The notes beneath the pieces were generated by a model, which saw only the letters and a list, made by a program, of their open reading frames with translations, was not told the DNA's origin and ran no database searches. A stretch of 64,000 nt of DNA, taken from positions 8,705-72,704 of IMG/VR virus record IMGVR_UViG_3300030106_005394. The stretch is one strand, 5' to 3'. This document shows, in pieces, positions 47,601 through 63,927 of this stretch (position 1 is the first letter of the stretch; each line of letters begins with the position of its first letter). The DNA comes from a virus. Position numbers and translations under genes: made by a program.

Positions 47601-49777
47601 GGATGAATATGGTGTCCGAGAAGCCTCAAATGAGGATTAGCGGAAAGGTTCGTAGACGTGCAGAAGCTATACTCAAGGGTCAGGGTATAACAAACCCGAA
47701 GCAAAAGTTTGAGGAACTAAGGTCTGCCGCAGTCCAAGAGGGTCAAGCGAGAAAAGCTTTCGAGATGATGGAGCTTTACTTTGGCGGCAAAGATGGCCCT
47801 TACCAAGATGTTAGGTTCCTTACAGAAATGCTTGGCTTCCATGCGTTCATGCTATTGTCGCAACCAAAGTCCTCAATGCTTAACTTCCTGTCCATACCTG
47901 ATATATTTGTTTTCTCTAGGGGACTCAATAAGATGGGACTAAAGGGAACCGCAAAGGCATTAGGCAATGTGCTGGATCAAGGCTTTGGTGGAATGCTTGA
48001 GTCAATGGGTATACAGTATAAAAGGGCTCATGACTACGCAAAGGATACTGGAGAGATGTTCTTTCACTTTAAGGAACACGAAGCTCCATTTAGGGATCAA
48101 ATTAACCTAGTTGGGCTAAGAGGAACAGGTAAGGCATCCTTTACGGATAGGAGTATATCTGGGGGGCTAGGGCCGATTCCGGGTGTCAAAGGATTATCTG
48201 CTATAGGCAGGGCACAGGCCGCTGGAGTGCGAGACCCAAGTAGACAGCCTCTATCGCTTAGGACGATGATTCCGGGCATAGGAGATCCATTTGGCTATAC
48301 AGCTAGAGTTTCCAACCACAGTATTGCTTTCGGGCTATCGTCGGTATACCACGATCTAGTCCTTGAGGCGTCTAAGTACATAAAAGCCAACAACCTAAAG
48401 CATGGTGATGAGATAACTGCCGAGGATCTAGGTTACGGAAAGGGCGTTGGAGGGATAGGATTCGGTAAGGCGACCCTAGATAACCTTGTTTTTGGAGGAG
48501 TAGAGGGCTGGAATAATTACAACGTAAAGCTAATTGACTCTGGCATTGGAAGTATAGCAGACCTTGCTCACGACTATTTGGCTAGAAAGAAGAACGGAGA
48601 TAATCGGGTATTATCTAAGGATGCTGTTTTAGGTATAGGAACAATTGGCCTGAATGAGGTATCTCTTGATGGGTTCCTTGCTCGAGCACCTTGGCTATAC
48701 ACGTCCCTGCCGGGCCGTGTAGCCGCTCCATTATTGGGTTGGTCACTTGGCAGGATCAATCAAGTTAATGAGTTTATGCGCACGAAGGACGGGAAGCTTT
48801 CGGGAATGCTACTCATTAAGTACATGGCCCTCATGTCTGGAAGCATGATCCCAGCAGGCCTATTCCTGTCCTTGACGCAGGATATCTGGGATGAAGACAT
48901 AACAGGTAAGCCATCTGCCTTAGGTTCCATAGCGCCTACTCAGGCCATACCATTCGTAGGTATGTTCATAAACAAAGACGATCCTAAGTATAGCATCATG
49001 GCCGCAATCGAAAGGGCTGGAAGAACCTCCTCCCCTTATGGGTTGGTGTATGATGCTATCGCTCAAACCATATCATTTGCAGATCCACACTCTCCAGCTA
49101 GAGGATTCTCCCTAGATAGTAGAATACTTATATTCTCTCAATTGAGTGGATTTATGAACATACTCAGAAATGTTGCGTCTACAGGCCTAGAAGGATTAAC
49201 GGATTATGGGACATTCACTAGACCGCTACTTTACAACATGGGAGGCAATGCCTACTTCCATTACCATCAAGCGTTTACAAATCTCATGGGCTCTGACTCT
49301 CAGGAGCGCAGGATGGCAGACATAATAGGTATTAAGAATACCTTACGTAAAGGGGCTAAGGCTACTGGTCTTCCGCTACGCACAGCCATGAAGTTTGGTG
49401 CTGCACCCACTCGACTCTCCATGTACATAAAGCAGATGGAGAGAGCGGCTATTGCAAATGACACAGACGCATTTAGGAATTCATATATTAGTGCGGTGGC
49501 CGTTGCCCGAGCCGATGGCAAACCTAACCCAGAGAAGTATGTTATTTCATCATTTAAGGACAGGGACTTACGCAGGTCTGTTACGGCTAGAAAAATACAA
49601 GATGAGGACTGGTCGAGACTACTCAATGAAATAGACCCTGAGATGAGAAGGAAGATATTGCAGTTTGAGGCTTCCAAGCAGAGGTATATTGAGCTACTAA
49701 GTCCACAAGTAGAAGCCTACAAGCAACCTAGAAGAAAGAGCTTAGCGCAACTCAGGAGAGAAGCATTAGGCTTATAA
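32678..49777 (+). CDS. Giant (5699 aa) internal virion / large polyvalent protein with LysM-like and two zincin HExxH domains
   Basis: Single uninterrupted ORF; EGGTEGFQE membrane-type N-terminal motif; RIERGDTL and VREGTTLADIAK...LVRLNGL LysM-like segments; HEIFH and HELIH. Confidence 0.85.
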   Translation: MSDTYGQTNPYTQRYRVQLKAQGVDTSQLSDDTLTFRLGKRLESEGKSLSKVGGDAFQKQYLDIKNRPAPDMQGPLALPKELYRAGRMSTIGMAGSGLSALGLVADQIPVVGDDLNAWMQEKANALRAESSRYTPTITRPTDIRWNKPDEAMRGAASIAGQAFPSLVQGLVAARTGAVGSKALAKTLSKRIPEGKKVTKRVKGTYVQRDAREDFIEKMEMGGMYAATALNSIGMNAGEIYSSLYDSTLLPESDPEYVDPVDARNASMVGGVISGSADFVLPSMIMSKFLRNTGPKGKHYWSRFVQSLPRNITLEGGTEGFQELVNMMSEKYAKGEPMDWKHMTSSERMRLVDAGILGAAGGAQATLIEALAQPEERPLSSVMAKELEARVKQGKIDQQRRLELADARETSRIGRIFKKGEAILDTSTGKIGTYNRRLSEDFIEIEADGQSQTVPIYRAVKAVPENQQSQFETGDYVTFSDIDVPEQGGIITSISGNRASIDGIDFDVELSKLNKVASKRENEQDRALQNLSKRTRSGNIAAATVNKILNSGLTIDQLKGTTAEGKDFEVVEQGGKYKYNLSSKKAKPVDVKVDPPTAEVQVPQSDINAYVTYATDFINKLKEKPNADLTGDYIYNITRKSFMNKYMKDKGVDAQVANNIWQQSNSNGIAWNLRERGILKGIRVSGETAGERLIADTKEKLGDIRKEYNLKKGVIAYNGNLGVTGRLNESNGRVEVHYISDAIIQTRQVDVGDIEKIKSTGDKASIKRLGFALQQQGIESYREHMDEILRLQGRTDKDIESKKEDVTRSIEEEGNRQAWLSYVSSLESKISEDETKQRNGKGFTDPAGNPNDFGRHYFAKQNISDLEDLYNGTLLNLGIYGDGSNKEYIDALAYYNIPARFNASDIKKVADVKPYYNMARRRFKYHLSKTQKEWESFLIDQYKADKSDKERRARESEAKNEKENERRKKLSQATKNNTPLPPDFEYSNEIVGRIEREHFSGVREGQEDALAIIDSIRSFLYNDGRFSFSEEQPALTGDKMRLYQAFDAHIRKNRGVWTPLVEGHWYKEPHWEKFINYARQEPSMRVKGLVWEDGDQAFPRKQNASLRAEINRWGSFYASWEGTYRDAVSTALGETLPKKLNVEQALLHMDEDFSNYIGENTDSALIQDILTGGEVEGVFTGLFDKLISVSSDAKTDWDTIANLSGGQQYPKLRFLKRPTKYGSHKVASINEDEFAELLAATQFDGANTMVNAWGNAIDITVTKQYKQNTSFKNYVVTDKAWGSEDRYWLEVRRDGGYYYVLLDSGSNDLRNSKRGIDFTEEQHSTSVQPETDTIEESFDEFKSYIGTLIESSIEGLDDYDILNLAAEDIIKNHKDKIPSILKRAKAPKVYDDSDGYEVLPYFVKLLEQAEQQGNLLELAKEQAKNVTEEQRQDALFSEFYKEAGDRISELEDEQAGDIPPDIGLAIMGEERRGIRELSKEWAEWFGRSAYRYLQMSVLRAARSGISLTRVFEEWYTSLIKYISTLTNTNGPVPTDTKARLMKVTNSELFSELLDELSKDKDFLSELTPQQQRNLKDIIKYGDSFGYMTKDSVVDYFDVIEDHMLTRIRVEALISDGDINNDLISQLQDQIGPVSLAEKIRQLQVAEGTGTEEIALHTALVGAENIYSKYNEAISKYDSVEDWTGTEDYRKLRAELQDSLYDKYKSGKGVNPIAELKDIKIPFGQADMFGANEFDPINAFQYEDIDWFNRLDNMDTPEFDWASILGATSYNRYRIERGDTLKGIVNMIAEQSGGDRDKIRDAIIESTNDDLNWIPDPLRSLNDAERMTYNALKAHRTFLESKVRDLGSSLELDEALKKVNKQMDDLTINAEKHNPQTRVEDFDGKAWHEQDIIGSGDNIGRFIIIPSRGGFGQALLDDIKAAEDARRIAIEFSGNEQKAFEALIAEEKAKEAKANLPSPEVQKSVAITVRSLSDENGQLSISDEDKYVNAEATAQKIDSVYAQSQMQAAMQKSTGAGKRAKGPYKKFFGFYSKSTASGLGSYFMVGTYQGKNKRVSIGSDNLPIVKKRPDGEPVINLTGKTFKEVRIQNKSTQQRSAGTYVIYRDNKGNAHFYNSNLFESYAPIMIRPDAFGLDRREGMTLGQFLVEHGDKFSLDGETITFRNPPMLADNQPRVSFKFSSYEDFLNAKNLAYGNVASVAASTGEKTLTGDRKTIKVLRSERNRLAEKIESFDVGDPDKLVNQYKFSHKAKSDELHKIEARSNPLMTGPEQDLDSFNENQRKNYTDDTVATVGQHASKIIKIGERSFQVTDTGVIDATTGLGVDSSKNFIVETLRPSRDIMIELVELSAELSYAGDPTNLYELKPDEIQNKFDRIVELEQKWKDLYSKNENLRYIIEQIGVPKDLGYSFGSRLYSVSQKMTGESQMENTRALEPEVARYIIESLFGRTRLLVPSKYELSIEMTRDIHKRLIKDNPLLSFLDRYIVDLSLKQSIRNVKRGDGKADEFIMDSGVTPVENAIMNDQRVVEVREGTTLADIAKAEGIETWDLVRLNGLIESEALTLRGEFSQQQKKIDVENAEAKFAEKLSRIKGTYPDYEVIILPNIEDSTVEVSRTSDREDTGYSDEDVDISDPDISGDRLGYSNTERMREYLKEEDTGRESEVIEVERRQIKDRSVELSRSLQGEYIDLGEELSELERQGFTTGSIAGKNQTRSNNIRARMREILVTIDRARRKSYWYTIRQNIYGSRIAGSSIELVTPESQALQEARAEQGIVQSQIKLERIEQGISQQSSDLQELRENIKKLGEETITVNTADFDRYANEPADATFVIKRDKHVTFTLEQGKALSELKGKLFNDLSKLGHYYKQIEIFVEAEIEASGLSAARAKRSATISKLRNLMVEKEAAMMESKAWTQVVNITKDPEDAANRVSDLGSTKQALLDYVDEEISTIEEQYTSPIDGTSIKVDMGSLSPSAASEIITSLGNVVLAGSSEGQLSEIKNNAEVIGEVSIKIDDMPESLQVELKSALEAYGTNDPRIAEKLMSISKNPVVLEYALGLFRGNRWQRSDDSSTYSVSSRNPWTSAAGTTQVFDSRKNFNTQSLRNFIHNGMGPMGGRKGYSQQFLQYVFRQFFTDINYISSEGDTTVFSQATADTIIKEAPLRGSTKEQLLEIKRRNEQQWAQVVGRLMAGGLGPTYLWDPSSIPSYVPDRPSINREDIDRGEFGFLGLDPNRLNAAISNNEDISKLKPDAELIYEQYQKALESRKITYREIDEADLAGLTPTQREEFINAERVSAIEAILDIGKNEPSNRTIGSLAMVLDNAVLASKTPEMLEAYIQDVLDKGGDIHQHWSRLILQDPDGVVSDQEGYRVGGSQGTREYSTPREFVDALYQKAADIVSDITEAVGGVGVNRNLVAEALRGQTDHSPTNEYKSATEPDEKIDPDAHIFHSAEPLEGQLDFDGQPMTGPVLTSSDKAERHNASVYAKTPSRIPVAPPIQETMVEDNNRAVDILLDNNLNSEYAGKLLHRVAARGNVDEFTKEIADRLRNAPALRSLPINFEQWATFKHKAYTKSGAFGKAYYNATTKSVHISKDAFRIRGADVDAQLDYIIVHEIFHNVLRDALTQKAQIRINDITEYRVAYLEDEANELFNEIKKIDIPAEFAHQVSSMEEFLNASWSDKRFSEWLSSQSPKSASGSKFKNFLDWLLDIFSRVISKITQRQDKREDRKSLSRIHERVKALTEALVPFQPPEGLAGKVFRSRGRHDQIARSISFSGYELDGNNIRALRSSLISDYVSDFKAAEVENPFEDYEKELDRLKKEVIEEEGGLNDDYLLTLKERAAKAVGQSLRRGQPVRHLYETHSFGRYKTVGVLFDEIYKSAKSRLPADSANIKLLKALDKALNWDVSNAQPIREAKLVPIEDRMGSSRRGRVGLKSDASVGTFIHELIHQFTQPEIRALERAHLNEHANYIEFARAIAESDSGSSASKVAQMYIKVIDSLPRDMRHTLVAGETYNLGKPMRRLNWRGLIGKDVSSGIAYGLSSLHEFYTQSLTDSDFQSLLADIFVDRSSTVLTELQDAFANRFNTIADTMLDLVLASEAYAPSYALPEEGKAMDLSDRRDITEQYLDSLPVERDSDDDVLLFSSEPNPDVTITPDENVAHQMLQELGGANTVLKEMEVVLSELAEEGYVPSTKEGEEPLAAFVREYGIVEGKPITYHINKLSKYAEAIGEDPKNVGLGWGGNDVNFKMQSAQLAIKYLEIIRKKARDQAESSATSIDNLETEIEELKKLLDPKQAFETSRNGRTLKGKFTTTINGKIKKLKATNTDQSLALAEELESIKGATSTQRVVDTLIHVVDRDVDIKGPVEDISSAIYDLTNDRNYSDVMAEVIQSSPTSFAFMQISRGTLPNQQELVDEISNYANYSRIKLEMEVPKLTGDDFETKIKRQFAERWRDLRLKEADIEYERSVNSVGREINNRLFPLRQKLGVILGDMEPFSLSDGVTMIHMKQTGEGNWTSGTYVIRLGNDMSPADLDEYNQVVGDNLKFLRDKSNDRYKDEPFYDIVKTQTNEAAKAPTMKEWHESRRASYFSVVQSLSQQFANMGLLGKTMSQMLNQVVTLHKAHDSYFKNQSFKWNRKLKDAAKALGYNDWQKLIEGPYTDALNWLDNHPELIGKGDVAYERMWEYLKTSGTFANPEKATLLGKKAFIAFMKETNTSREMLRDLSLSIGNKVKAVHKGDNIMVQSPVTGEMVPLYRDPIDVGPVTVARRINKSLIATVEVLSRAGWGDIKPPEEGEDIGLYLSRYFTPQVVERFVAPYATMNTMTEAFKLKGQMIPQSVIRSAWMKTSGEGTDRFIEWAQNLSTTLGMELEDTTKQLFSQLQGFHSEMVRVKDSADNKETFRITDSVAHKIMDGRDIRTVMPKEFWQYDTFDEMGFNIQLANVITNAVMGRGGERRRGVHNGLMDQLRIKKKAFAELISQAGGRMNMVSEKPQMRISGKVRRRAEAILKGQGITNPKQKFEELRSAAVQEGQARKAFEMMELYFGGKDGPYQDVRFLTEMLGFHAFMLLSQPKSSMLNFLSIPDIFVFSRGLNKMGLKGTAKALGNVLDQGFGGMLESMGIQYKRAHDYAKDTGEMFFHFKEHEAPFRDQINLVGLRGTGKASFTDRSISGGLGPIPGVKGLSAIGRAQAAGVRDPSRQPLSLRTMIPGIGDPFGYTARVSNHSIAFGLSSVYHDLVLEASKYIKANNLKHGDEITAEDLGYGKGVGGIGFGKATLDNLVFGGVEGWNNYNVKLIDSGIGSIADLAHDYLARKKNGDNRVLSKDAVLGIGTIGLNEVSLDGFLARAPWLYTSLPGRVAAPLLGWSLGRINQVNEFMRTKDGKLSGMLLIKYMALMSGSMIPAGLFLSLTQDIWDEDITGKPSALGSIAPTQAIPFVGMFINKDDPKYSIMAAIERAGRTSSPYGLVYDAIAQTISFADPHSPARGFSLDSRILIFSQLSGFMNILRNVASTGLEGLTDYGTFTRPLLYNMGGNAYFHYHQAFTNLMGSDSQERRMADIIGIKNTLRKGAKATGLPLRTAMKFGAAPTRLSMYIKQMERAAIANDTDAFRNSYISAVAVARADGKPNPEKYVISSFKDRDLRRSVTARKIQDEDWSRLLNEIDPEMRRKILQFEASKQRYIELLSPQVEAYKQPRRKSLAQLRREALGL

Positions 49778-54332: not shown

Positions 54333-54550
54333 GACCAGTCCTTACTGCTTACTATCATTGATAGGTTAGTGCCCTTTAGTTCTGCAATTAAGTCCCCATC
54401 TTTATGGTGCTTATATGTAACTACTGGCTTCATATCTATGTGAGGATTTAGCTGGTGGTACAGGATTTGGAGCTTTGACCACTTATCCAATACCTCCTTC
54501 GATACTTGTATTTGTGGTTCTTCGTCTTCTGAGTGATTAACTATGTACAT
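54320..54550 (-). CDS. Hypothetical protein
   Basis: In-operon ORF. Confidence 0.55.
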   Translation of the reverse strand: MYIVNHSEDEEPQIQVSKEVLDKWSKLQILYHQLNPHIDMKPVVTYKHHKDGDLIAELKGTNLSMIVSSKDWSWTE

Positions 54551-55373
54551 GATTGTAACCTTCTGTGGTCGATGTGTCTGAGTGGCCTACATATCGGCCT
54601 ATGTCTGTGATTGATAAGCCCATGCCAGCCAGCCTAGTCACAAAGCTGTGACGTAGGCTATGGAATGAGCGGCCTTCTATGCCGTACTCCTTGAGTAGCT
54701 TGCTGAATTTGGATGACAGTCTAGCTCTAGCTTTTGGGTACTCAACGGTAGCCCTTTGCCTAGGGAAGCAGAACACATCGTCCTCCTTCTCTATCTCCTC
54801 TAGATACTGACATAGCTTGCCAAGTCCAGTTGCTATATGGCCCAGTGGGAGAGACACACGCTTATCCCTCTTCTGTGTCCACACGACCATATGCGTATCG
54901 GATATGGAGTTCCACTCCAAACAGCATATATCGCTCAACCTTAAGCCAGTATACCAGCTTATAGCGGTCGCCTGTCTATAGAAGTAAGGCGCGTGATCTA
55001 TGACATACTGTACCTCCGTTTCAGTGAAGGGCCTCACATTGCGACCCTCGCGCTGACTGTGGTTTAGTATGCGCTTGTTCACCTTAACTATATCGGCTGG
55101 ATTTGTACTACAGTAACCCTTACCCTTTGCGTAAGCAAAGAACGCCTTGATTGCTGCAAGGGTGAAGTTCTTCGTAGAAACGGACTTGCCGTCATCCGCA
55201 TTAACCCAAGCATTGATAATCTCTGGCGTTACAGCCGTTATCGACTTAAGCTTGCGCTCCTTGATGAACTTCTCCACGTACTTGCCTTGGGAGTATATGG
55301 TATTCTCGGAAGAGCCGCTTATGTATCGCCACTTCTTCCAGCATATTAACATCTGCGGTATTGTAGGTGTCAT
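54537..55373 (-). CDS. Tyrosine recombinase/integrase (Xer-like size)
   Basis: TGLRLSD, QK, FHSLRH, VGH, TTEGY: full R-K-H-R-H-Y catalytic set; SAM-like N-domain ending NPA. Confidence 0.93.
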   Translation of the reverse strand: MTPTIPQMLICWKKWRYISGSSENTIYSQGKYVEKFIKERKLKSITAVTPEIINAWVNADDGKSVSTKNFTLAAIKAFFAYAKGKGYCSTNPADIVKVNKRILNHSQREGRNVRPFTETEVQYVIDHAPYFYRQATAISWYTGLRLSDICCLEWNSISDTHMVVWTQKRDKRVSLPLGHIATGLGKLCQYLEEIEKEDDVFCFPRQRATVEYPKARARLSSKFSKLLKEYGIEGRSFHSLRHSFVTRLAGMGLSITDIGRYVGHSDTSTTEGYNHVHS

Positions 55374-58039
55374 TTAGATGCCTCCAATTCCGTAATCCTA
55401 TGACGAAGTATAGGCCAGTCCTCCTCGCATTTCTGCTCGCATATATTCCTTGACTCCTTGTTGAAGTTAAGAACATGAGTGGACATTATTTCGTCAGGAT
55501 GAACCGAGTTCACATTGCGAGGCACATGCATACCTCGCAGACATATCGTAGCGGAGTCTTCCTTTAGCCCCAGCTTCTCAAACAGAAGCTCCTCTATAGT
55601 ATCCTTGTGAAGTATCACAAAGATATTAACAGGACGAGGGGATATGAGCCTCCATACTCGACCTTGAGCTTGGTTAAACTTACCATAGCTCCACTCTAGA
55701 GAGCCGATAATAAGATTGTTACATTGCTCAAACGAGTAGGATTGGGCACAGTTAATGCCCATCAACATAACACGAGTCTCTCCAGCCTTAAACATAGCAG
55801 CCTCCACAGCATGCTTGCTTCTTGTGCTGTCAATACGTGATACTTTTATGCCAGCTTCATCCAATCTCCGCTCTATCTCAGAGCTTTGATGGATGCGAGC
55901 AGATACATGAACTACCTGCTCTCCATTGGCTAGACACTCGTATATCTTTTCCAGTATAGCAATCGTCTTAGGATTGAAGTTGCTATTGATTTTTACTATA
56001 TCTGGATCGGATTCCTCTTGCTTCGCTCTCTTGTGATACTCCACGACAGTTTCCACAGGAGCGGCACACAGACCACGCAACCAAGTAGACTGAACAGCCT
56101 TAATATTCTTTGGGTCTGTGAATGGTATGTTTTGTACCTGCACCAAGTGAGCATAAGCATCAAACTGCATTCTGCCCATAGGTACTGTTGTGGTGGTAAC
56201 ATTACACGGCACTATCTCAGAGTTACAGTCCTTCTTGGCTATGTATGCCATGCTTGGCTTTAGTAACTTGAGTAGTCTTCCTGCCTGACTAATGATAGGC
56301 GACACCTTTGTTGACTGAGGGTTCTTTACTCCCCTCTGTGCCTTTATCATCTTGTCGGTGAGATCCTCCTCGTAGGAGCAGAAGTGCTCCTTGAAGGTAC
56401 TCAGTTCGTCCTTTGTGTATGGCCAGTTCTTGTTTGACAGCCCACCGTGATGCCACTTGTAGACACATAGCCAGCCCATCAGGCTGAACAGGTTGTACAC
56501 CATATTGGGTATAGGCGTTGCCGTAAGAGCGTACCTATACGGAGGCTCCAGCCTAATCATAGCCTTAGTCGTCTGTGACTCAAGGTTACAGATTAGGTGC
56601 GCCTCGTCGAGTATCACCATGTCCATAGCATCTCCAATGCGAGTAGCTAGAGATGGATTACCGATACAGCGAATGCCATTGAAGCTAGCACCTAGCCCCA
56701 TAGACAGTCTTTCTGGCACAGTTCCGATGTCCTCGTCTTCTTCGTCCTCCTTACTAGGATAGCCGAACCTCTTACGAGTTTTATCTTCACGCTCCGCCTC
56801 TGACCAAGAGGCAGGTATAGCCTCGAATGCATCACCACTAGTGAATAGTGCTTGAGGCCAAGTCAAGTAAACACCTCTCGGTAGCTTACCATCATTCTCA
56901 GCCATTAGCTTCTCCATCTTCTTGCGCTTTGTCATAAGACGAACTGGAGCCTGACAGCCGAACTTCTTTAGCTCTGCCTCCCACTGTGCTATGTGGAAGT
57001 CACTACCCTGTTCGACAGTGCCCTTGGGTGCAATGATCCACACAACATCTGCGTTCTTGGTCATTATTAGACTTATTGCGATAAGCGACTTACCGCAACC
57101 CGTCTCAGCCGCAATCAAGCCAGAGTCCCTACAGCTCATGCGAGCAATGTAGTCTTTCTGGCCATCGAAGTAATCAAACCCCTGCAAGAGTTCAATCACA
57201 TCAAGCTGGGCCATTGCAGAGTCATACTCTACTGACTTAGTTTCCTTGATCGTAGGTATGCTAGGCTTATCAAACACATCCCACAGCTTACCCTCTTGAA
57301 CCTCTCGTTCTCCGTCTGGGTGAGCTATGAAGTGCAACCGAACATCGTCATCATCATATATGCAGTAGATAGCATCCTTACCATGTAGCACCATTTCGTG
57401 CTCCATCATAGTCAGCTCCCTCTCCTGCGGATTATAGTGAGACTTCATTCGTGTGAATGGTTCCCGATACCTTCTTGACATCAGTCTCACCTCATACTCC
57501 CTACCCTTGGTGAAGCGATAGAAGTAGTGGTTTGCTGCTGCTCCAGTTATCTGCTCTCCTGCAGTAACCAGCTTGCGCTGGAAGTCCATTCGGTATGGCT
57601 TGTTAGGCCACTCCGCAAGACCATTATCTGATTCATTCACCATGTACACGCCACCGCCATATTCATAGCGATCGGCATACACCTGACCCCCTGCAATTAT
57701 ACAGTTATTCTTGCAGGTGAGTGTTCTGAACTCGTCAGTCCACGCTATAGCCTCGTAGTCAGTCCAAGGCATAATAGGTGGATCTATACTCTTACTATCC
57801 TCAAGTGCCTTGAGCATAGCGTCCTTTGCTTTTCGTTGGCATATCGCCCACTTACTTTGGCATACATACTGCATGGCATCACGATCTGCCGTAACAGTAG
57901 TGAGCTGTATTGGAGTCTGGCCATGTATTCGTTTTAGCGCACCCTCAAGTATATGGTAGTCGGGTGTCTCATTGGGGATCGCATCTGGGTTGGTGCGAAT
58001 AACACCTATCCCCGTGATCCATATGTGTGGTTTAGTCAT
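55370..58039 (-). CDS. SNF2-family (SF2) helicase/ATPase with an uncharacterised N-terminal region
   Basis: AAETGCGKS, ILDEAH, LTATP, QAQGRVWR, DTIEE. Confidence 0.88.
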   Translation of the reverse strand: MTKPHIWITGIGVIRTNPDAIPNETPDYHILEGALKRIHGQTPIQLTTVTADRDAMQYVCQSKWAICQRKAKDAMLKALEDSKSIDPPIMPWTDYEAIAWTDEFRTLTCKNNCIIAGGQVYADRYEYGGGVYMVNESDNGLAEWPNKPYRMDFQRKLVTAGEQITGAAANHYFYRFTKGREYEVRLMSRRYREPFTRMKSHYNPQERELTMMEHEMVLHGKDAIYCIYDDDDVRLHFIAHPDGEREVQEGKLWDVFDKPSIPTIKETKSVEYDSAMAQLDVIELLQGFDYFDGQKDYIARMSCRDSGLIAAETGCGKSLIAISLIMTKNADVVWIIAPKGTVEQGSDFHIAQWEAELKKFGCQAPVRLMTKRKKMEKLMAENDGKLPRGVYLTWPQALFTSGDAFEAIPASWSEAEREDKTRKRFGYPSKEDEEDEDIGTVPERLSMGLGASFNGIRCIGNPSLATRIGDAMDMVILDEAHLICNLESQTTKAMIRLEPPYRYALTATPIPNMVYNLFSLMGWLCVYKWHHGGLSNKNWPYTKDELSTFKEHFCSYEEDLTDKMIKAQRGVKNPQSTKVSPIISQAGRLLKLLKPSMAYIAKKDCNSEIVPCNVTTTTVPMGRMQFDAYAHLVQVQNIPFTDPKNIKAVQSTWLRGLCAAPVETVVEYHKRAKQEESDPDIVKINSNFNPKTIAILEKIYECLANGEQVVHVSARIHQSSEIERRLDEAGIKVSRIDSTRSKHAVEAAMFKAGETRVMLMGINCAQSYSFEQCNNLIIGSLEWSYGKFNQAQGRVWRLISPRPVNIFVILHKDTIEELLFEKLGLKEDSATICLRGMHVPRNVNSVHPDEIMSTHVLNFNKESRNICEQKCEEDWPILRHRITELEASK

Positions 58040-58534
58040 TTAACGTAGTATTAGTTGTTCTGGCTCGAAGTCGTCAGTTAGGTATCCGTTGGCGGCAAAG
58101 CTGTAGTAGCCTAGCCCCTTGGGACACTGCTTCGGATCTCCGAGTATAAGGTGCTCCACACATGGCACACCCAGAGCCATACCAGCCTTCTTCACCATCT
58201 CTGTTGACTTATAGTCAGCATCGCTCGGTGTAGTGTTGCCAGATGGATGGTTGTGCGCCATAACAATGGAGCAAGCATTCACGTTTGGTGCTAGCGCTGG
58301 GGCAAACAACTCCCTCATATGGAAGATGACGGTATCAACAATACCGACAGTAATCTGCCGACGACAGATAGGCTTATCATGCCGATCAAGGCACATAACC
58401 CATATCTGCTCCTGAGTAGGAAGCTCATCAAAGCCCGTCCGTAGATACTCTAGCCTACAGCGAGTGGAGTCCAAGCCATCGGCACAGAACTCCTCACGCA
58501 ACTCAAACGAGTATTTTAGATCATATATGCGCAT
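58040..58534 (-). CDS. RadC-type JAB/MPN domain protein
   Basis: QE...AHNHPSGNTTPSDAD JAMM motif (E...HxH...S..D); EHLILG. Confidence 0.9.
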   Translation of the reverse strand: MRIYDLKYSFELREEFCADGLDSTRCRLEYLRTGFDELPTQEQIWVMCLDRHDKPICRRQITVGIVDTVIFHMRELFAPALAPNVNACSIVMAHNHPSGNTTPSDADYKSTEMVKKAGMALGVPCVEHLILGDPKQCPKGLGYYSFAANGYLTDDFEPEQLILR

Positions 58535-58540
58535 TGACTC

Positions 58541-59215
58541 TTACAGCTCAGATATAGCGGTAAGTAGAGTCTTGATACCAGCTTCAGCCTTCTTGACATC
58601 TGCGGACAGAATCCGAATAGCCTCATGCATGGTAGCAATAGCGGTAGTATGACCTTCGATGCTTGTGTCTGTACTTGTTATGTACTGACCGATCTGGCCT
58701 TCTGTGGTATCCAGCCGACCCTCAAGCGTATCCAAGCGTTCCGCCATAGTGGCAAGAAGTTCGTTGGATGTATTGCTTGTGGCCTCCTCCTTCTTCCTCT
58801 TCAGCTTGGCTACTGCATCAGCAATAGCGTCATCAGCCTCAGGCTCAGGGGCAGGTTCAGGCTTAGGCTCAGGCTTAGCTGGCTCAACATTAACCTCTGA
58901 CCCACTTTCGTTAGAGTCAAGGGTAAGGGTCTCCATCTTAGGTAGCCACTTACTGATAATAAACACACGTTCAGCGCGAACAGCGGAGGCAATCTCCTCT
59001 GCCGACATTGAATTAGTATCTACTCCTTCTGGCTTGATTACGCAGTCGAAGGACTGATCTTGGAACCAGCGCATATACTCGTCAGTATTCCCGTTGGTCC
59101 ACAGGCTAACGCAATGGCTAGCGAGTTTTGTGCTTTCAATACCAAGCTCTTTAGAGCGAGACAAGAATGCGGCGTTGATGCTTTGCACGAACTGATTATG
59201 TTCCTTAGCTTCCAT
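58541..59215 (-). CDS. Hypothetical protein with PE/PK linker and C-terminal coiled coil
   Basis: EPAKPEPKPEPAPEPE; heptad repeats. Confidence 0.65.
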   Translation of the reverse strand: MEAKEHNQFVQSINAAFLSRSKELGIESTKLASHCVSLWTNGNTDEYMRWFQDQSFDCVIKPEGVDTNSMSAEEIASAVRAERVFIISKWLPKMETLTLDSNESGSEVNVEPAKPEPKPEPAPEPEADDAIADAVAKLKRKKEEATSNTSNELLATMAERLDTLEGRLDTTEGQIGQYITSTDTSIEGHTTAIATMHEAIRILSADVKKAEAGIKTLLTAISEL

Positions 59216-59897
59216 TTGTTTTGATTGGGTTAGTAATGCCAGATTTGAGATTTACAAATACACCACGATAATCTAGCGAACCGTAGCGTACCATTTTCCA
59301 CACAATATTTAAGGCGTGTGTAGCGATCGCCTGATTGATAAACAGGTCTTGCCTGTTTAAGGATTCCGCCAGTGAGCATGATGGGCCATCGTCATCGAAC
59401 TTAGTTTTCAATGCAGGATGATCCTCGTATGGAGATGGATACTCCATGCCACCTAGGATTACCTGACCGAAGTCACGCTCGTTTCCGCAGTCCATTATGT
59501 ACTGACGCTTTGGAGAGCTTAATCGCTCTATCTGTTCTCTGCCTACGCCTGTGTCGATACAGACCATGACAAGATCAGCGGATACATCACCTGCCCACTT
59601 ACTATTCATCCAGTTCCAATGAGCACCATAGAATAGGTTGAGCCGACGAATGAGGCATTCAGCTTTGTATTCACCAACATCATTCATGTGGAACAGTTGT
59701 CTGCCCACATTGAATGTGCCCACCCTGTCTGGGTCATAGGCACGAACAAACAGTCCATGCTGATGGCCACAAGACTTGATGGCATTGTGAATGCGTGCCA
59801 GCCCCGTGAGGACTTGTGATCCTGTGCCACCGCAACCGATGACATCGACCTTGATTGCCCGATTAACAGGTAGCATTATAGAACCCGTCAAGATCAT
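59205..59897 (-). CDS. PRTRC-type ThiF/E1 ubiquitin-like activating enzyme
   Basis: VIGCGGTGS, DPDRV...NVGRQ.F...KA, CID...R, DCGN..DFGQVILG, PSCSLAESL.RQDLFINQ. Confidence 0.92.
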   Translation of the reverse strand: MILTGSIMLPVNRAIKVDVIGCGGTGSQVLTGLARIHNAIKSCGHQHGLFVRAYDPDRVGTFNVGRQLFHMNDVGEYKAECLIRRLNLFYGAHWNWMNSKWAGDVSADLVMVCIDTGVGREQIERLSSPKRQYIMDCGNERDFGQVILGGMEYPSPYEDHPALKTKFDDDGPSCSLAESLNRQDLFINQAIATHALNIVWKMVRYGSLDYRGVFVNLKSGITNPIKTNGS

Positions 59898-60579
59898 AGA
59901 CTGGAAGCGACCGATCTACAGCCACCATAGTCTTCACTCGCTTGTCGTATACCTCATACCCCAAGCTCCTCACTTCAAAGGTGTCATGGAACTTAGGCTT
60001 ACGGGTGAACCTGCTGTTAAAGAACAGATCTTCAACAGTCTGGCAATCGTCAGATAACTTCATACCCACATTACAAGTGTGGACACGAAAGCAACTGATG
60101 TCCGGCAACACCAAGGGCCTTATTTCGTACTCCATCTCGTGCTTAGGAGATACTTCCCAAGCTGCAACGAATAACTCGTTGCTTGGTGTCCGTCTGAAGA
60201 TGAGTGACGGCCAATTGACAGTCTCCGTCTGGGACTCCTTGAGACTTCGCAGGTTGCTGTCCACCAAGTATCTGAGCTTTCGACGTTGCAGACCTGTCCA
60301 CCAGATGACGTCTGCTCCATTTTGATAGAGCAGTCCACCTCCATGGTGCTTGGAGGTATCAAGCCAGCTAGGCCCGCTAGACTTGTCCATGGAGTCAATT
60401 GCTCTACGCAAATCCTCCTTGGATAACATCTTGCCAGACTGAAGCTGACCATCAACCGCCTCCGCAAGGGTGGCAATTGTGGACCTATCACCGTATACAG
60501 GAGTGGCATCCGTGAAGAACAGGATACCACTACTTAATTTATAGTCCGTATGTGTTGTCATAGGGGTCTGGTGCTCCAT
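59863..60579 (-). CDS. PRTRC protein B-like (prokaryotic E2 family D)
   Basis: VIWW...RR.L.Y...WPSLIFR...LFVAA...candidate catalytic Cys in HTCNV...EDLFFNSRFT; start at 60579 or 60561. Confidence 0.7.
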   Translation of the reverse strand: MEHQTPMTTHTDYKLSSGILFFTDATPVYGDRSTIATLAEAVDGQLQSGKMLSKEDLRRAIDSMDKSSGPSWLDTSKHHGGGLLYQNGADVIWWTGLQRRKLRYLVDSNLRSLKESQTETVNWPSLIFRRTPSNELFVAAWEVSPKHEMEYEIRPLVLPDISCFRVHTCNVGMKLSDDCQTVEDLFFNSRFTRKPKFHDTFEVRSLGYEVYDKRVKTMVAVDRSLPVYDLDGFYNATC

Positions 60580-60991
60580 CAGTTGAGGACTCGAAGTCAT
60601 CACTCTCCAAGTAGGAGTGATGGTGATGACTTGTTGGGTCTGACTCTGGCTCACAAAGAGCCAGCTCGCATGGGTTGATCTCGGTCTCCACCTCCTCCTT
60701 GAAGAGGTTATGTACCAAGTCGACCGCATCCTTGTCGTGCCCACCTATGTGCCAGTCGGTGATCTGGCTTACTGGAGTGCCATCGGCTCCCCAGTAGTTG
60801 CGTCCATCCTTCCAGTTATAGATAGTGGCAATGACGCCGCTATCATGGTGTATGATCCATTGGGCATCAACCTTGAACCCATCACCATCAGTAGGTTCGC
60901 CCAGTCTGTCTACGATCTGGTCGTAGTTGAGTTCGATTCTGCCCTGCAGGGAAGTACCGCACCCATCGTGCTGATTAACTATTATTTTCAT
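60539..60991 (-). CDS. Phage hypothetical protein
   Basis: TSLQGRI...LGEP...KVDAQW...ATIYNWKDG...WHIGG. Confidence 0.65.
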   Translation of the reverse strand: MKIIVNQHDGCGTSLQGRIELNYDQIVDRLGEPTDGDGFKVDAQWIIHHDSGVIATIYNWKDGRNYWGADGTPVSQITDWHIGGHDKDAVDLVHNLFKEEVETEINPCELALCEPESDPTSHHHHSYLESDDFESSTDGAPDPYDNTYGL

Positions 60992-61670
60992 TTATTATTC
61001 TTTCTAGTCTTTTTATCTCTGACCTTATGTATTTCAGTGTGCTGACCTTAACTCCATCACATGCCCAGACTATCATATCATCTGCGCCCATAGCATCCTC
61101 GTATATAGACTGTATGAAGTGACCATACATAGAGTGACCATTAATGTAGTCACCGAATATAGGTAGCTCCTCCGTCTCTACTATAACAAGACCCCATCCA
61201 TAACCGCTTGAGCCAACGTGTTGAGCGTATTGCCACTTGGGTATATTATCCCAATTGGGCACGTCTTCATTGTCCACGCATTCTTCGTCTCCATAGCAGT
61301 AATCATAGAATGCGGCTGGAGTTATGTTATGTACGCAAGATGATGCGATTCTTTGCATGGTATGCTCATCCTTGACCTTAATGATGTTAGGTGTGCCCGA
61401 CTCAACGGACAGTCCAGCGCCATTAAAAGACCAGCAATCGTGCATACCTGCATTGATCCATGTCCCCAGAGGTCCACCCCACCACTCTTGGAGAGTATCC
61501 GCAAGATGGCTAGGTGGAACCCCAAACTCCTTGCAGAGAGCGTGGACATGGCTGACATGATATGTCTGTACATCGACAGAAACAGGCACAGTCAAGGCAT
61601 CGGTGGGATGTCGATACCTTTGGCTGGGCTTGGTCTCTTGTCTATTGCTTGGAGCAAGAGCTTGTGCCAT
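60975..61670 (-). CDS. Hypothetical protein at the position of PRTRC protein F
   Basis: Immediately downstream of the Ubl; assigned by position only. Confidence 0.5.
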   Translation of the reverse strand: MAQALAPSNRQETKPSQRYRHPTDALTVPVSVDVQTYHVSHVHALCKEFGVPPSHLADTLQEWWGGPLGTWINAGMHDCWSFNGAGLSVESGTPNIIKVKDEHTMQRIASSCVHNITPAAFYDYCYGDEECVDNEDVPNWDNIPKWQYAQHVGSSGYGWGLVIVETEELPIFGDYINGHSMYGHFIQSIYEDAMGADDMIVWACDGVKVSTLKYIRSEIKRLERIINENNS

Positions 61671-61673
61671 TTC

Positions 61674-61874
61674 CTAACCTTTTTGACCGTAATTGGCCTT
61701 GATGGTGTAGACGATGGCTTCAGACGTTTCTGACTTCTTGAACTCTGCATTTGATATCTCTGGATACTGCAACCCAAGCACCCCCTTTACTGCATCTATA
61801 GGCAGGTCAGGGTTTGGGTCACTGAGTCTTAGTCCGTTGAACTCAAACACGCGAGGCAATCTTGAGACTTCCAT
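61674..61874 (-). CDS. PRTRC protein C-like prokaryotic ubiquitin-like protein
   Basis: L.RVFEFNGLRLSDPNP...VK..L..QYPEISNA...YT...GQKG-stop. Confidence 0.88.
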   Translation of the reverse strand: MEVSRLPRVFEFNGLRLSDPNPDLPIDAVKGVLGLQYPEISNAEFKKSETSEAIVYTIKANYGQKG

Positions 61875-62386
61875 TACCCAAGAAGCTCCGCGAGTAGGTC
61901 ATCAGTTTTTTCAGCTTTCGGCTCAGGCTTAGCTGGCTCAGGCTTAGGGGTCGGCTCCGAGCCAAACCTTGGGCCATCACTCTTGATGGCGGCAAGCCTC
62001 TCGGCGTCCTCCTTAGCATCAGCCTCCTTCTTAACGGCCCTCTTTGAGGGTGCCTTCTTGTTAGCAGGAGCTTTCTTCCTTGTTTTCTTCTTAGCTTCAG
62101 CCTCAGCCTCAGCTATCTGCTTGTCGATTGCCTCCATATTGTCGAAGTGCTTACCGAGCGCACCTCCCCATATGGCCACAGTCTGACCAAGCTTTTCATC
62201 TATTTCCTCTGCTGTGCCGTGAATGCGTAGAGGAGCCATCTCTTCAATGGACTTAACTGATTCACCTGCCTTTCCCTGCGCCTTGCAGGAGAGGGACAAC
62301 GTATAACGCCCCTCGCTATCCGCTGGATATATCATTACGCATACTCGCTCCAGCTTGGCGAGCATATCGGTCATTTCAACTAGCAT
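61874..62386 (-). CDS. PRTRC protein E-like
   Basis: PLRIHGTAEEIDE motif, then coiled coil and K/A/P-rich tail; TAATG-coupled to the Ubl. Confidence 0.75.
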   Translation of the reverse strand: MLVEMTDMLAKLERVCVMIYPADSEGRYTLSLSCKAQGKAGESVKSIEEMAPLRIHGTAEEIDEKLGQTVAIWGGALGKHFDNMEAIDKQIAEAEAEAKKKTRKKAPANKKAPSKRAVKKEADAKEDAERLAAIKSDGPRFGSEPTPKPEPAKPEPKAEKTDDLLAELLG

Positions 62387-62640
62387 ATTACTTCTAGTGC
62401 TTCTGGGTTGTGTTTTTTTAACCATAACTCGCCTGTCATTGTAAGCGGAGCAGGAACTCCACCTAGCAACTCAGATGAGCCAATCATTCTGTAGAGCCAC
62501 ACGAAGTGACTCCATGGGTGACCTTCGATTAATTCATCGGGGTCTTTGATGCTCTCCAAGACTTCATCGAAGAAGCCTTGAGGCAACGCACAGTCGTAGG
62601 TTTGATACCCACGCTGTTTACATAGATCAGCCTTGTTCAT
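62380..62640 (-). CDS. Hypothetical protein
   Basis: In-operon ORF. Confidence 0.6.
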   Translation of the reverse strand: MNKADLCKQRGYQTYDCALPQGFFDEVLESIKDPDELIEGHPWSHFVWLYRMIGSSELLGGVPAPLTMTGELWLKKHNPEALEVIC

Positions 62641-63046
62641 AGGTTATCTCTGGTTGTTGTGTATTTATTGTGGGTCGGACTATATCTACTCCATATTGGG
62701 TGCATATTGCATACAGCCCGCCACTAACGAGGTCACCTTGATACTTACGGAACCAGCCCTGCTTCTTCAGTAAGACCTCGTAAGTGTCATCCCAATGGAC
62801 TCCATTACTTGCGAACATCTTATGCCTTGGGCTGATCGTAGTGGTGTGTCCGTGTATCTGATTGCCGATGAGAGTCACCGACCTAAGTACACAGTTCTGA
62901 ACCTTACGATCCTCGTCTTGGTAGCGCAAACGCCACCATATATTCATGCCGCCAGCATACCACCCTGCGGATGATATGCTGACGACGGCTGGAACTGAAG
63001 GATGTGACTCCTCCTGCCAGCGTTGGATTTGTGTTTGGTAATCCAT
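62627..63046 (-). CDS. Hypothetical protein
   Basis: In-operon ORF. Confidence 0.6.
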   Translation of the reverse strand: MDYQTQIQRWQEESHPSVPAVVSISSAGWYAGGMNIWWRLRYQDEDRKVQNCVLRSVTLIGNQIHGHTTTISPRHKMFASNGVHWDDTYEVLLKKQGWFRKYQGDLVSGGLYAICTQYGVDIVRPTINTQQPEITYEQG

Positions 63047-63273: not shown

Positions 63274-63927
63274 TCAATTAAGTTGATCGAATCTGTATTT
63301 CACCCAGTACGGGTACTTACGCTTGTTAGTCACATAGGGATACAAGGAATCTGGGTCTTTGGCCACAATACCCTCGTAGACGTGTTTCCCTATATCCTTA
63401 TTGTGCTCCTGCATGGCCTTCCAGTGAATAGGATTGTATTCTGTCCGCCATGTAGGTAGAACGAACACACCCTCGTTAGGCTCAAGCTCCTCGTACATTT
63501 CCCAACGAGGAAAGAACCCTCGTATCTTTGTGAGTCGCTCGCTGTATGTGCTTCCAAGCCTTGGAAGGTCATGGATAACCAGAGCTGTAGGCTCATCTCC
63601 ATAGGCAGGACCCATGATGCCAGCATCAAGGAGGTACGGCCAGTCAGTAGTCAGCTTTGCGTCGATCATGGCTGACTCCTCTAGCCACTCCCAGAATCCA
63701 TGAAGCATCTTGATCCACTCGTCAGGCAGTGTTGCCTTAGTGTACTCGTTGCCATCGCTTGCAAATGCGATGTGATCAACTTGATTTCTGTTTAGTAGTA
63801 TTGCCAGCCGATGGTCATTGACCTTTGGCTGACAAGTCCAGTCTTTGGGGCAACGCCTATAGCTGTTACCCGCAGAAGGCTTTATCAGCTTCCGCAATAG
63901 TGTAGGTTTTGATGCTACTGCTGTCAT
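63274..63927 (-). CDS. ATP-dependent ligase-like nucleotidyltransferase domain (no OB-fold)
   Basis: QPKVNDHR (motif I), LLDAG (III), IHDL (IIIa), EGIVAKDPDSLY (IV), WVKYR (V). Confidence 0.7.
   Translation of the reverse strand: MTAVASKPTLLRKLIKPSAGNSYRRCPKDWTCQPKVNDHRLAILLNRNQVDHIAFASDGNEYTKATLPDEWIKMLHGFWEWLEESAMIDAKLTTDWPYLLDAGIMGPAYGDEPTALVIHDLPRLGSTYSERLTKIRGFFPRWEMYEELEPNEGVFVLPTWRTEYNPIHWKAMQEHNKDIGKHVYEGIVAKDPDSLYPYVTNKRKYPYWVKYRFDQLN

Follow-up and report, generated by a model that had tools for sequence, protein, structure and literature searches.

A divergent PRTRC-type cassette with ubiquitin-like, E2-like, and E1 genes in a tailed-phage genome related to a lineage linked to an SNF2 helicase

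The cassette and its setting in the phage genome

The DNA analyzed here is a stretch of 64,000 nucleotides, referred to below as the window, which comprises bases 8705 to 72704 of the 72,704-base IMG/VR virus record IMGVR_UViG_3300030106_005394; this record is classed as linear and is rated complete by CheckV. The minus strand of the window carries, at positions 58040 to 62425, a divergent cassette of the PRTRC (ParB-Related, ThiF-Related Cassette) type that includes genes for a ubiquitin-like protein (Ubl), an E2-like protein, and a minimal E1 of the ThiF family. An initial annotation, made from the letters alone, had described such a cassette in a phage that also has virion genes, and this description is borne out by profile hidden Markov model (HMM) matches of the cassette proteins and by the TerL, portal, and structural protein matches of the genome.

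The leftward run begins with a PRTRC_E-like protein (61874 to 62425; 183 amino acids as listed), the probable start of which is placed at 62386 (MLVEM...; 170 amino acids) because its alignment to TIGR03741 begins at residue 15. The next gene encodes the Ubl (61674 to 61874; 66 amino acids), which corresponds to PRTRC protein C (Prok_Ub) and ends in GQKG-COOH. It is followed by a 231-amino-acid orphan in the protein F position (60975 to 61670), which is a candidate specificity or accessory factor, and by a 150-amino-acid small open reading frame (ORF; 60539 to 60991) that lies inside the cassette. A divergent E2-like protein with the candidate active-site residue Cys162, similar to PRTRC protein B (Prok-E2_D-like), is encoded at 59863 to about 60558; its start more likely lies at 60558 to 60597, giving about 231 to 244 amino acids, than at the GTG at 60744. 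The run continues with the PRTRC-type ThiF, or minimal E1 (59205 to 59897; 230 amino acids as listed), with a probable start at 59876 (MLP...), as in its closest relatives. The ORFs and motifs quoted in the initial annotation, namely, PLRIHGTAEEIDE in the E-like ORF, the GQKG end, HTCNV, GCGGTG, and PSCS, are all found on the minus strand.

Four further minus-strand genes complete the packed run. A 224-amino-acid coiled-coil protein (58541 to 59215) overlaps the ThiF stop by 11 nucleotides and is followed by a RadC-like JAB protein (58040 to 58534; PF04002, phrog_10276), an 889-amino-acid SNF2-family helicase (55370 to 58039; PF00176 and PF00271), and a tyrosine integrase (54537 to 55373; phrog_1 at 1.4e-44) that overlaps the SNF2 stop by 4 nucleotides. 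From E through the integrase, neighboring genes overlap by 1 to 35 nucleotides or are separated by gaps of 0 to 6 nucleotides, and this packing suggests a single operon. Promoter-like sites occur at chance level (18 found versus 18.7 expected), and a terminator scan found no convincing terminator inside the cassette. Within the record, the integrase gene sits in the middle rather than at one end of a prophage, and no tRNA genes were found in the window. Upstream of E, the minus strand carries ORFs of 86 (62380 to 62640), 139 (62627 to 63046), and 217 (63274 to 63927) amino acids, with the 86-amino-acid ORF between the 139-amino-acid ORF and E; among the products of the latter two, the only family match is a subthreshold one of the 217-amino-acid product to a nonhomologous-end-joining ligase domain (E value, 0.021). 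The 217- and 139-amino-acid ORFs may belong to the module, and their order upstream of E is kept in a metagenome locus described below (L086, 2442 to 3604).

The genome is that of a tailed phage. In a PHROG search, its plus strand showed genes for TerL (phrog_2, 2.2e-27), a portal and an adaptor, together with other virion-protein matches. The minus strand encodes a DnaB-type helicase, an O-like initiator, Erf, and an exonuclease in addition to the SNF2 helicase and the tyrosine integrase, so that the PHROG and Pfam context agrees with the earlier placement of the cassette among replication, recombination, and integration genes. The cassette proteins from E to ThiF have no PHROG matches. The nearest cultured TerL, that of Rhodococcus phage REQ3, shows 27% identity over 31% of its length, and the phage has no close cultured relative; a blastn search with the cassette and a tblastn search with the SNF2 helicase against 50,697 phage records returned no match. 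Directly after the structural genes, the plus strand carries an ORF of 5,699 amino acids (32678 to 49777), which occupies about 23% of the 72.7-kb genome and of which both halves lack a Pfam match at an E value of ≤0.001.

Conserved features of the E1, Ubl, E2-like, and E proteins

In searches with curated NCBIfam and Pfam models, ThiF and the Ubl scored above their cutoffs, E scored above that of Pfam only, and the E2-like protein scored below both. ThiF matches TIGR03736 with 230.3 bits (cutoff, 144.75; 229.6 bits in the genome search) and PF00899 with 33.3 bits (cutoff, 28.1). Its ATP loop and PSCS cysteine had been called intact, which is consistent with the alignment, in which 16 relatives show no variation at G21, G23, G24, G26, D55, R66, K78, D115, and C174. 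When the E1 family profile was searched against the PDB, SUMO E1 UBA2 chains matched best, and the cysteine column of the family aligns with the cysteine of the UBA2 PGC motif at chain residue 173, which we take to be the UBA2 catalytic cysteine. Cys174 is the candidate thioester cysteine by this alignment.

The Ubl matches PF14454 (Prok_Ub) with 55.3 bits (cutoff, 25) and TIGR03738 with 49.9 bits (cutoff, 45.95). Its C-terminal glycine is invariant in 21 aligned sequences, and no residues extend beyond the domain. A PDB profile search with the Ubl gave only chance-level matches (E values of ≥0.34). Complex prediction of ThiF plus the Ubl, with the E2-like protein as partner, scored 0.00 twice, which is a verdict in neither direction.

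The E2-like protein matches a local HMM built from 11 phage-borne B proteins with an E value of 7.9e-17, and at the level of the lineage its predicted homology to protein B is clear. An AF2 model built from a 47-sequence alignment has a pLDDT of 71.6. When this model was compared exhaustively with 48,161 PDB representatives, most of the 50 best rows were UBC, E2, RWD, or UEV folds aligned over model residues ~61 to 215, and the structural neighbors include Citrobacter BubCD-BubB-BubA, the Serratia CdnG-E2 complex, and a bacterial E1-E2-Ubl complex. The modeled fold is accordingly read as UBC-like, short of proof. A Foldseek search of the model against BFVD returned just two matches, an unnamed viral entry with 100% identity and an uncharacterized phage protein, and a PDB profile search with the sequence returned no matches at an E value of ≤1. 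The cysteine in HTCNV that had been proposed as the E2 cysteine is Cys162. In the model it lies in a loop between the beta-meander and the helix at residues 172 to 180, and across the family this site is cysteine bearing: 161 of 162 B proteins have a cysteine within 4 columns of the reference cysteine.

The presence of an E2-like partner bears on whether the E1 and the Ubl form a sulfur-carrier or other adenylation pair of the ThiF-ThiS or MoeB-MoaD type, feeding a nucleic acid or cofactor modification. Sulfur transfer ancestrally pairs a ThiF-family E1 with a Gly-terminated partner of the beta-grasp type, there are weak matches to ThiF and MoeB models, and the cassette lies among DNA metabolism genes. 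However, in all of the 82 viral loci that were annotated with local HMMs (80 from IMG/VR plus Ralstonia phage Dina and Burkholderia phage BgVeeders33), a cysteine-bearing, UBC-like B protein is encoded beside the E1. In the PDB, the E1 profile is closest to Ubl-activating E1s, with whose catalytic cysteine the family cysteine aligns, and no rhodanese, cysteine desulfurase, or sulfur insertion enzyme was seen in the scanned ORFs around the cassette. We regard a sulfur-carrier role as very unlikely.

Protein E matches PF19556 with 27.7 bits (cutoff, 26), falls below the cutoff of TIGR03741 (31.2 bits; cutoff, 37.95), and matches a local E HMM with an E value of 1.8e-9. In the ESM Atlas, its head matches PRTRC_E clusters by structure (TM score, 0.72). 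The protein starts with a folded domain, continues through a disordered linker rich in Lys, and closes with an acidic-hydrophobic tip that ends in ...DDLLAELLG (61874 to 61900). E proteins have this three-part build in common, and the C-terminal tip was compared across 69 of them. The tip follows the pattern hydrophobic-[D/E/N]-hydrophobic-[F/L/Y/W/M], or LDLPI, in 52 of the 58 E proteins of A-containing viral loci, versus 12 of the 1,618 other ORFs of at least 100 amino acids in the same loci. Examples are ...TLDLF, ...GVDLL, ...GVDMY, and ...GLDLPI, and the loci include those with E at L010:4273-4968 and L017:4414-4983. This tip resembles the bacterial sliding-clamp-binding peptide. The tip of the window E is closest to ...D[DE]IAELGI of L007 and L008 and falls outside the clamp-type pattern. 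By its predicted build, with a folded head, a disordered linker, and a docking-type tip, E looks like an adaptor.

A 31-nucleotide direct repeat (90% identical; 58856 to 58886 and 61910 to 61940) encodes an EPAKPEPK-type linker in both the 224-amino-acid coiled-coil protein and E. Marine metagenome contigs pile up on both copies, probably through low-complexity recruitment, and the two proteins have no similarity beyond the shared linker.

Relatives of the cassette and the absence of protein A

PRTRC cassettes had been regarded as mainly a feature of plasmids and integrative and conjugative elements, and this view is at least overstated. A tblastn search with the window ThiF against the 50,697 cultured-phage records found five records, namely, Burkholderia phage BgVeeders33, Ralstonia phage Dina (two records), Ralstonia phage YO105_4, and a faecal bacteriophage fragment, and the RefSeq record of Ralstonia phage Dina already names E, C, F, B, A, and ThiF. 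Relatives of the window E1 were found in 203 IMG/VR contigs and at 326 loci in one-per-species cellular genomes. Prophage copies are also on record. In a 2026 paper on Burkholderia gladioli prophages, the AB2 cassette is called a "ParB/ThiF partitioning cassette." In a 2026 preprint, a diversity-generating retroelement is linked to PRTRC protein B of a Phocaeicola prophage, which is reported to be a recurrent hotspot of mutation. Since cultured, prophage, and IMG/VR copies all exist, phage carriage as such is not new. PRTRC cassettes are common in phages, and the window holds an unusual divergent variant without JAB or ParB rather than a first example.

The canonical PRTRC cassette (NCBIfam TIGR03734 to TIGR03742) corresponds to operon type 6d of Iyer, Burroughs, and Aravind (2006; PMC1779556). 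The window shares with canonical cassettes, such as gp07 to gp02 of phage Dina, the order E, Ubl (C), F slot, E2 (B), and E1 (ThiF), a ThiF and a protein C that pass the curated cutoffs, the G-x-K-G end of the Ubl, and the head, linker, and tip of E. Unlike them, the window lacks protein A (DUF2016 plus Prok-JAB), ParB, and a recognizable protein F (alpha-hel2); its Ubl has no extension, its E2 has no His after the Cys, and an extra small ORF lies inside. An E2 gene that abuts the E1 gene and a mature Ubl are also found in JAB-less variants, including Bacteroidota-type E-C-x-B-ThiF cassettes in cellular genomes and other phage contigs and the SNF2-linked lineage described below.

Bil is an anti-phage defense system composed of a Ubl, an E1, an E2, and a deubiquitinase, and Cap2/Cap3 of the cyclic-oligonucleotide-based antiphage signaling system (CBASS) likewise belong to a Ubl-type defense. 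With these systems and with Bub, the cassette would share an E1 adenylation domain, a UBC-fold E2 with a cysteine, and a Gly-terminated beta-grasp tag, as predicted here from sequence and model. Unlike them, it has no CD-NTase, deubiquitinase, or fused E1-E2, and it is phage borne rather than located in a host defense island. Between ThiF residues ~10 and 95 and Cap2-type E1-E2 models there are only local matches of 14 to 21 bits over the nucleotide loop. The Ubl, the E2-like protein, and the other proteins do not match the known Ubl defense models of NCBIfam and PADLOC (CBASS Cap2/Cap3, 6A-MBL, and Bil), and PADLOC assigned no defense system.

The exact order E-C-F-B-A-ThiF is found in 57 of the 82 annotated viral loci, and protein A is present in 62 and absent from 20. 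Ten of the loci (L007, L008, L009, L012, L013, L023, L027, L062, L066, and L083) form an A-less lineage linked to an SNF2 helicase. Members of this lineage have a diverged F of ~300 amino acids ("Fx"), which is linked to canonical F by F-type HMMs, a B protein of 194 to 215 amino acids, and a ThiF of 222 to 239 amino acids. The SNF2 helicase is present in 9 of the 10 loci, the tenth contig being too short, and the integrase is present in the 6 that reach far enough. The window SNF2 helicase is 41 to 46% identical to those that follow ThiF in L007, L008, L009, L013, L027, and L083, and the integrase is 35 to 38% identical. The window shares the short, His-less E2, the 222- to 239-amino-acid E1, and the SNF2 helicase and integrase that follow, and by sequence it is a member of this lineage. 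Unlike the members with the ~300-amino-acid Fx, the window and L086 carry an unrelated-looking protein of 231 to 233 amino acids and variable inserted ORFs.

The SNF2 helicase and the integrase are also found without the cassette. Seven of the nine full-length SNF2 relatives in IMG/VR have ThiF upstream, and L170 and L171 lack the cassette. This indicates that the SNF2-integrase pair is a backbone and that the cassette is an accessory module. In L170 and L171 (7001 to 10544), the SNF2 helicase is 36% and the integrase 45 to 46% identical to those of the window, with no Ubl cassette upstream; the upstream ORFs of L170 include a GP88-family protein, a DUF932-like protein, and an AAA ATPase.

A single-protein scan of IMG/VR and lineage patterns applied to GTDB genomes found no close E1 relatives. 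Protein searches found six closer E1s (63 to 78% identity), and two metagenome loci with relatives were recovered, L086 (E1, 61%) and L085 (E1, 71%). The order in L086 is the 217-amino-acid homolog, the 139-amino-acid homolog, the E-like protein, a 66-amino-acid Ubl, a 233-amino-acid homolog of the 231-amino-acid protein, two unrelated ORFs, E2, and ThiF, with identities of 26% (217-amino-acid ORF), 25% (139-amino-acid ORF), 23% (E), 38% (Ubl), 23% (231-amino-acid protein), and 23% (E2). A shared order at 23 to 61% protein identity suggests long-term retention. The E1 is far better conserved than the E2, E, and F-slot proteins (61% versus about 23% to the nearest relative). In addition, marine metagenome contigs from four studies cover the cassette at ~90 to 100% identity, and one of them bridges the E2, 150-amino-acid, and 231-amino-acid genes; none of the 20 runs listed is an RNA run.

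According to Iyer et al. (2006; PMC1779556), a His located C terminal to the Cys (F-T/S-H motif) is the hallmark of E2 family D. In the SNF2-linked lineage, 13 loci, among them the window and L086, have Q, Y, K, M, or R in the signature-His column. In the same 13 loci, the E2 Cys is shifted by ~3 residues and a His lies upstream of it, 2 residues before the Cys in the window and L086 and ~7 to 10 before it in other members. The loss of this residue could be taken to mean that the cassette is a decaying, nonfunctional leftover of a plasmid-type PRTRC cassette, with an inactive E2 and a disrupted F. The E2 below both curated cutoffs, the E below that of TIGR03741, the missing F and A, and the foreign small ORF inside the cassette would all fit such decay. 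All ORFs are, however, intact and packed, and the catalytic residues of the E1, the Gly of the Ubl, and the Cys of the E2 are retained. The His-less E2 type is shared by 13 lineage loci, gene order is kept at 23% protein identity, and variants at 90 to 97% identity in other marine studies retain the region, so that we consider a decayed cassette highly improbable.

The protein in the F slot has no Pfam, NCBIfam, PHROG, or PADLOC match, and only three credible relatives were found among 1.84 billion representatives. A fourth match, to the 5,499-amino-acid protein P0126 (E value, 8e-16), was rejected as a repeat artifact in which 11 matches of 3.7 to 7.9 bits to a tandemly repeated unit at residues 1847 to 4688 add up. 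The 5,699-amino-acid ORF of the window has no similarity to the 231-amino-acid protein, an IMG/VR pattern scan found no relatives of it, and the ESM Atlas gave no usable match. The possibility that the 231- and 150-amino-acid ORFs together represent a split protein F was also tried and is unsupported (hhalign, 11.5% and 0.4%). With a 23%-identical homolog of 233 amino acids at the same position in L086, the 231-amino-acid protein is a conserved member of the branch to which the window belongs.

The 150-amino-acid ORF has no protein F family match (TIGR03742 or PF14456). Its N-terminal ~95 amino acids belong to a family of ~110-amino-acid hypothetical proteins (28 other clusters, mostly of 106 to 134 amino acids) without a Pfam assignment. 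It had been called an inserted phage ORF, and this agrees with the variable contents of the slot in other cassettes; it is taken as an insertion because the slot holds different, unrelated ORFs in L086. It looks like a small mobile phage gene. In the 224-amino-acid protein downstream of ThiF, a PEPK-type linker joins an N-terminal domain to a C-terminal coiled coil, and the only family matches are subthreshold coiled-coil ones. A homolog (57% identity over 106 amino acids) directly follows ThiF in L085, and other SNF2-linked loci lack one; the protein is possibly a lineage-specific accessory.

The absence of ParB and of a canonical protein A, which had been stated for the window, extends to the whole record. 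No ParB (PF02195) was found in the 72,704 bases, and the control genomes were positive in 10 of 14 cases. Protein A (TIGR03735) was not detected in the record at an E value of ≤10, but the same search detected none in the control genomes either. The better evidence is therefore that the adjoining E2 and ThiF genes have no space for A between them and that 62 of the 82 viral loci, but not the window, were matched by a local A HMM. The lack of ParB also bears on the idea that the cassette serves to maintain or partition the phage genome in the manner of a plasmid. A ParB partner gave the canonical cassette its name, the cassette is common on plasmids and integrative and conjugative elements, and the phage is temperate, as its integrase shows. 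A same-strand ParB-like gene was nevertheless found in only 7 of 83 viral loci, in a search of limited sensitivity, and with an integrase present plasmid-style partition is not needed. In the passage concerned, the B. gladioli prophage paper gives no experimental basis for the partition idea, and in view of the ParB-less 72.7-kb record we give a partition role only a slight chance.

The missing JAB peptidase is matched by the form of the tag. Among 146 cassettes with a detected Ubl, protein A is present in 92 and absent from 54; the Ubl runs on for 48 to 97 residues past G-x-K-G in 57 of the former and in none of the latter (Fisher P of ~1e-15, with independence overstated because the sequences are related). 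The 54 JAB-less cassettes include L007 to L009, which have an intermediate HMM score owing to an internal insertion and end in GTKG. With extensions found only where JAB is present, the JAB-less form, the window included, would make a tag that needs no processing, and this removes one reason to seek a substitute peptidase in the RadC-like protein.

That protein matches PF04002 with 101.1 bits (cutoff, 22.1), has an intact HNHPSG...SDAD motif (AHNHPSGNTTPSDAD in the translation), and is not of the Prok-JAB type of PRTRC protein A. The initial annotation counted it as a nearby JAB with a JAMM motif. The motif is there, but membership in the system is not supported, since the protein is of the RadC type and lies beside the cassette in only 1 of 10 other lineage loci (L027) and 5 of 80 cellular loci; among viral loci, L027 and the window alone have it. 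RadC genes are frequent passengers of mobile elements generally, and we know of no RadC protein shown to cleave a Ubl. The RadC-like protein could still be the missing peptidase that replaces protein A and removes or recycles the Ubl, making a complete writer-eraser set. It belongs to the JAB superfamily with an intact motif, it lies in the same packed leftward run, and RadC genes do recur near PRTRC cassettes. Against this, the gene in L027 lies after the helicase, and the Ubl requires no trimming. We consider such a role unlikely; the RadC-like JAB is probably an independent mobile-element gene.

Proposed conjugation pathway and its possible role

We favor, with somewhat better than even confidence, a working JAB-less Ubl conjugation system of the PRTRC kind, carried as an accessory module of a temperate marine phage lineage beside the SNF2-integrase backbone. 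The 66-amino-acid Ubl is translated, as its sequence reads, in mature form with a free C-terminal Gly66, and a trimming peptidase would not be needed. ThiF would bind ATP-Mg through G21-x-G-G-x-G26, D55, R66, K78, and D115 and adenylate Gly66, and the Ubl would then form a thioester with E1 Cys174; these steps are suggested by the conserved residues and the SUMO E1 alignment. The Ubl would next be handed to Cys162 of the E2-like protein and joined to lysines of a target protein, with the 231-amino-acid orphan and E probably helping as adaptors or specificity factors. As the cassette has no dedicated eraser, the modification would be irreversible unless another peptidase removes the Ubl. The parts of the cascade can be read from the sequence, and all of its chemistry is predicted.

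Several observations weigh against a working system of this kind. The predicted beta-grasp fold of the Ubl follows from its Pfam match. The E2-like protein falls short of the curated cutoffs (20.8 bits versus 25 for PF14460 and 35 versus 131.45 bits for TIGR03737). In the exhaustive PDB comparison, its model reached a best Z score of only 4.3, with all matches weak; Foldseek found nothing in the PDB at an E value of ≤0.001, and residues 152 to 163, the loop that carries Cys162, have a pLDDT below 50. The His of the signature column, present in 143 of 162 B proteins, is Arg in the window (FTRKP), so that the enzyme may lack activity or work by a different chemistry. The F slot adds a further difficulty, as the 231-amino-acid protein could not be tied to F (hhalign, 11.5%; no match to TIGR03742, PF14456, or the local F, Fx, and Fy HMMs) and its AF2 model is unusable (pLDDT, 53). 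For the cassette, no target, E3, or isopeptidase was identified, and no biochemical work on any PRTRC system was found in the literature searched. In 185,579 species genomes, no cellular E1 relative exceeded 46% identity, the best ones coming from Victivallaceae and Lentisphaerae metagenome-assembled genomes, and the host was not identified.

The E2, F-slot, and E proteins diverge far faster than the E1, and on this ground a conflict interface, in counterdefense or in the exclusion of rivals, is our guess for where the module most likely works. The roles proposed in the initial annotation, namely, tagging of host proteins, countering of Ubl-based host defense, and exclusion of competing phages, are likewise conjecture. 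The mutational hotspot that the 2026 preprint reports in protein B would fit an arms-race role for the E2. A conflict function, to which this divergence, the hotspot, and the accessory nature of the module point, is a guess, and we give it at most a minority chance, well under even. We also consider a more specific form of this idea, which is quite unlikely. The SNF2-linked clade may have rebuilt the E2 active site, with a His upstream of the Cys in an order nearer to that of eukaryotic E2s, and in this phage F may have been replaced by an orphan specificity factor. The tip of E may dock on a host hub, such as the sliding clamp or the interaction site of the single-stranded DNA-binding protein (SSB), so that a host replication or defense protein would be covalently tagged early in infection. 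If true, this would be the first case in bacteria of a ubiquitin-like conjugation system that a virus encodes and uses offensively.

PRTRC cassettes have been catalogued since 2006 and are among the most widespread bacterial ubiquitin-like systems on mobile DNA. The window offers a minimal natural version, with a 66-amino-acid mature tag, a 230-amino-acid E1, an E2 of ~231 amino acids, no peptidase, and no ParB, which makes it a compact test case. The comparisons suggest three rules, that a JAB is needed only where the tag has a C-terminal extension, that one phage clade runs its E2 without the signature His, and that protein E ends in a conserved docking-type peptide. Finding the target would reveal what phages and plasmids use ubiquitin-like tagging for.

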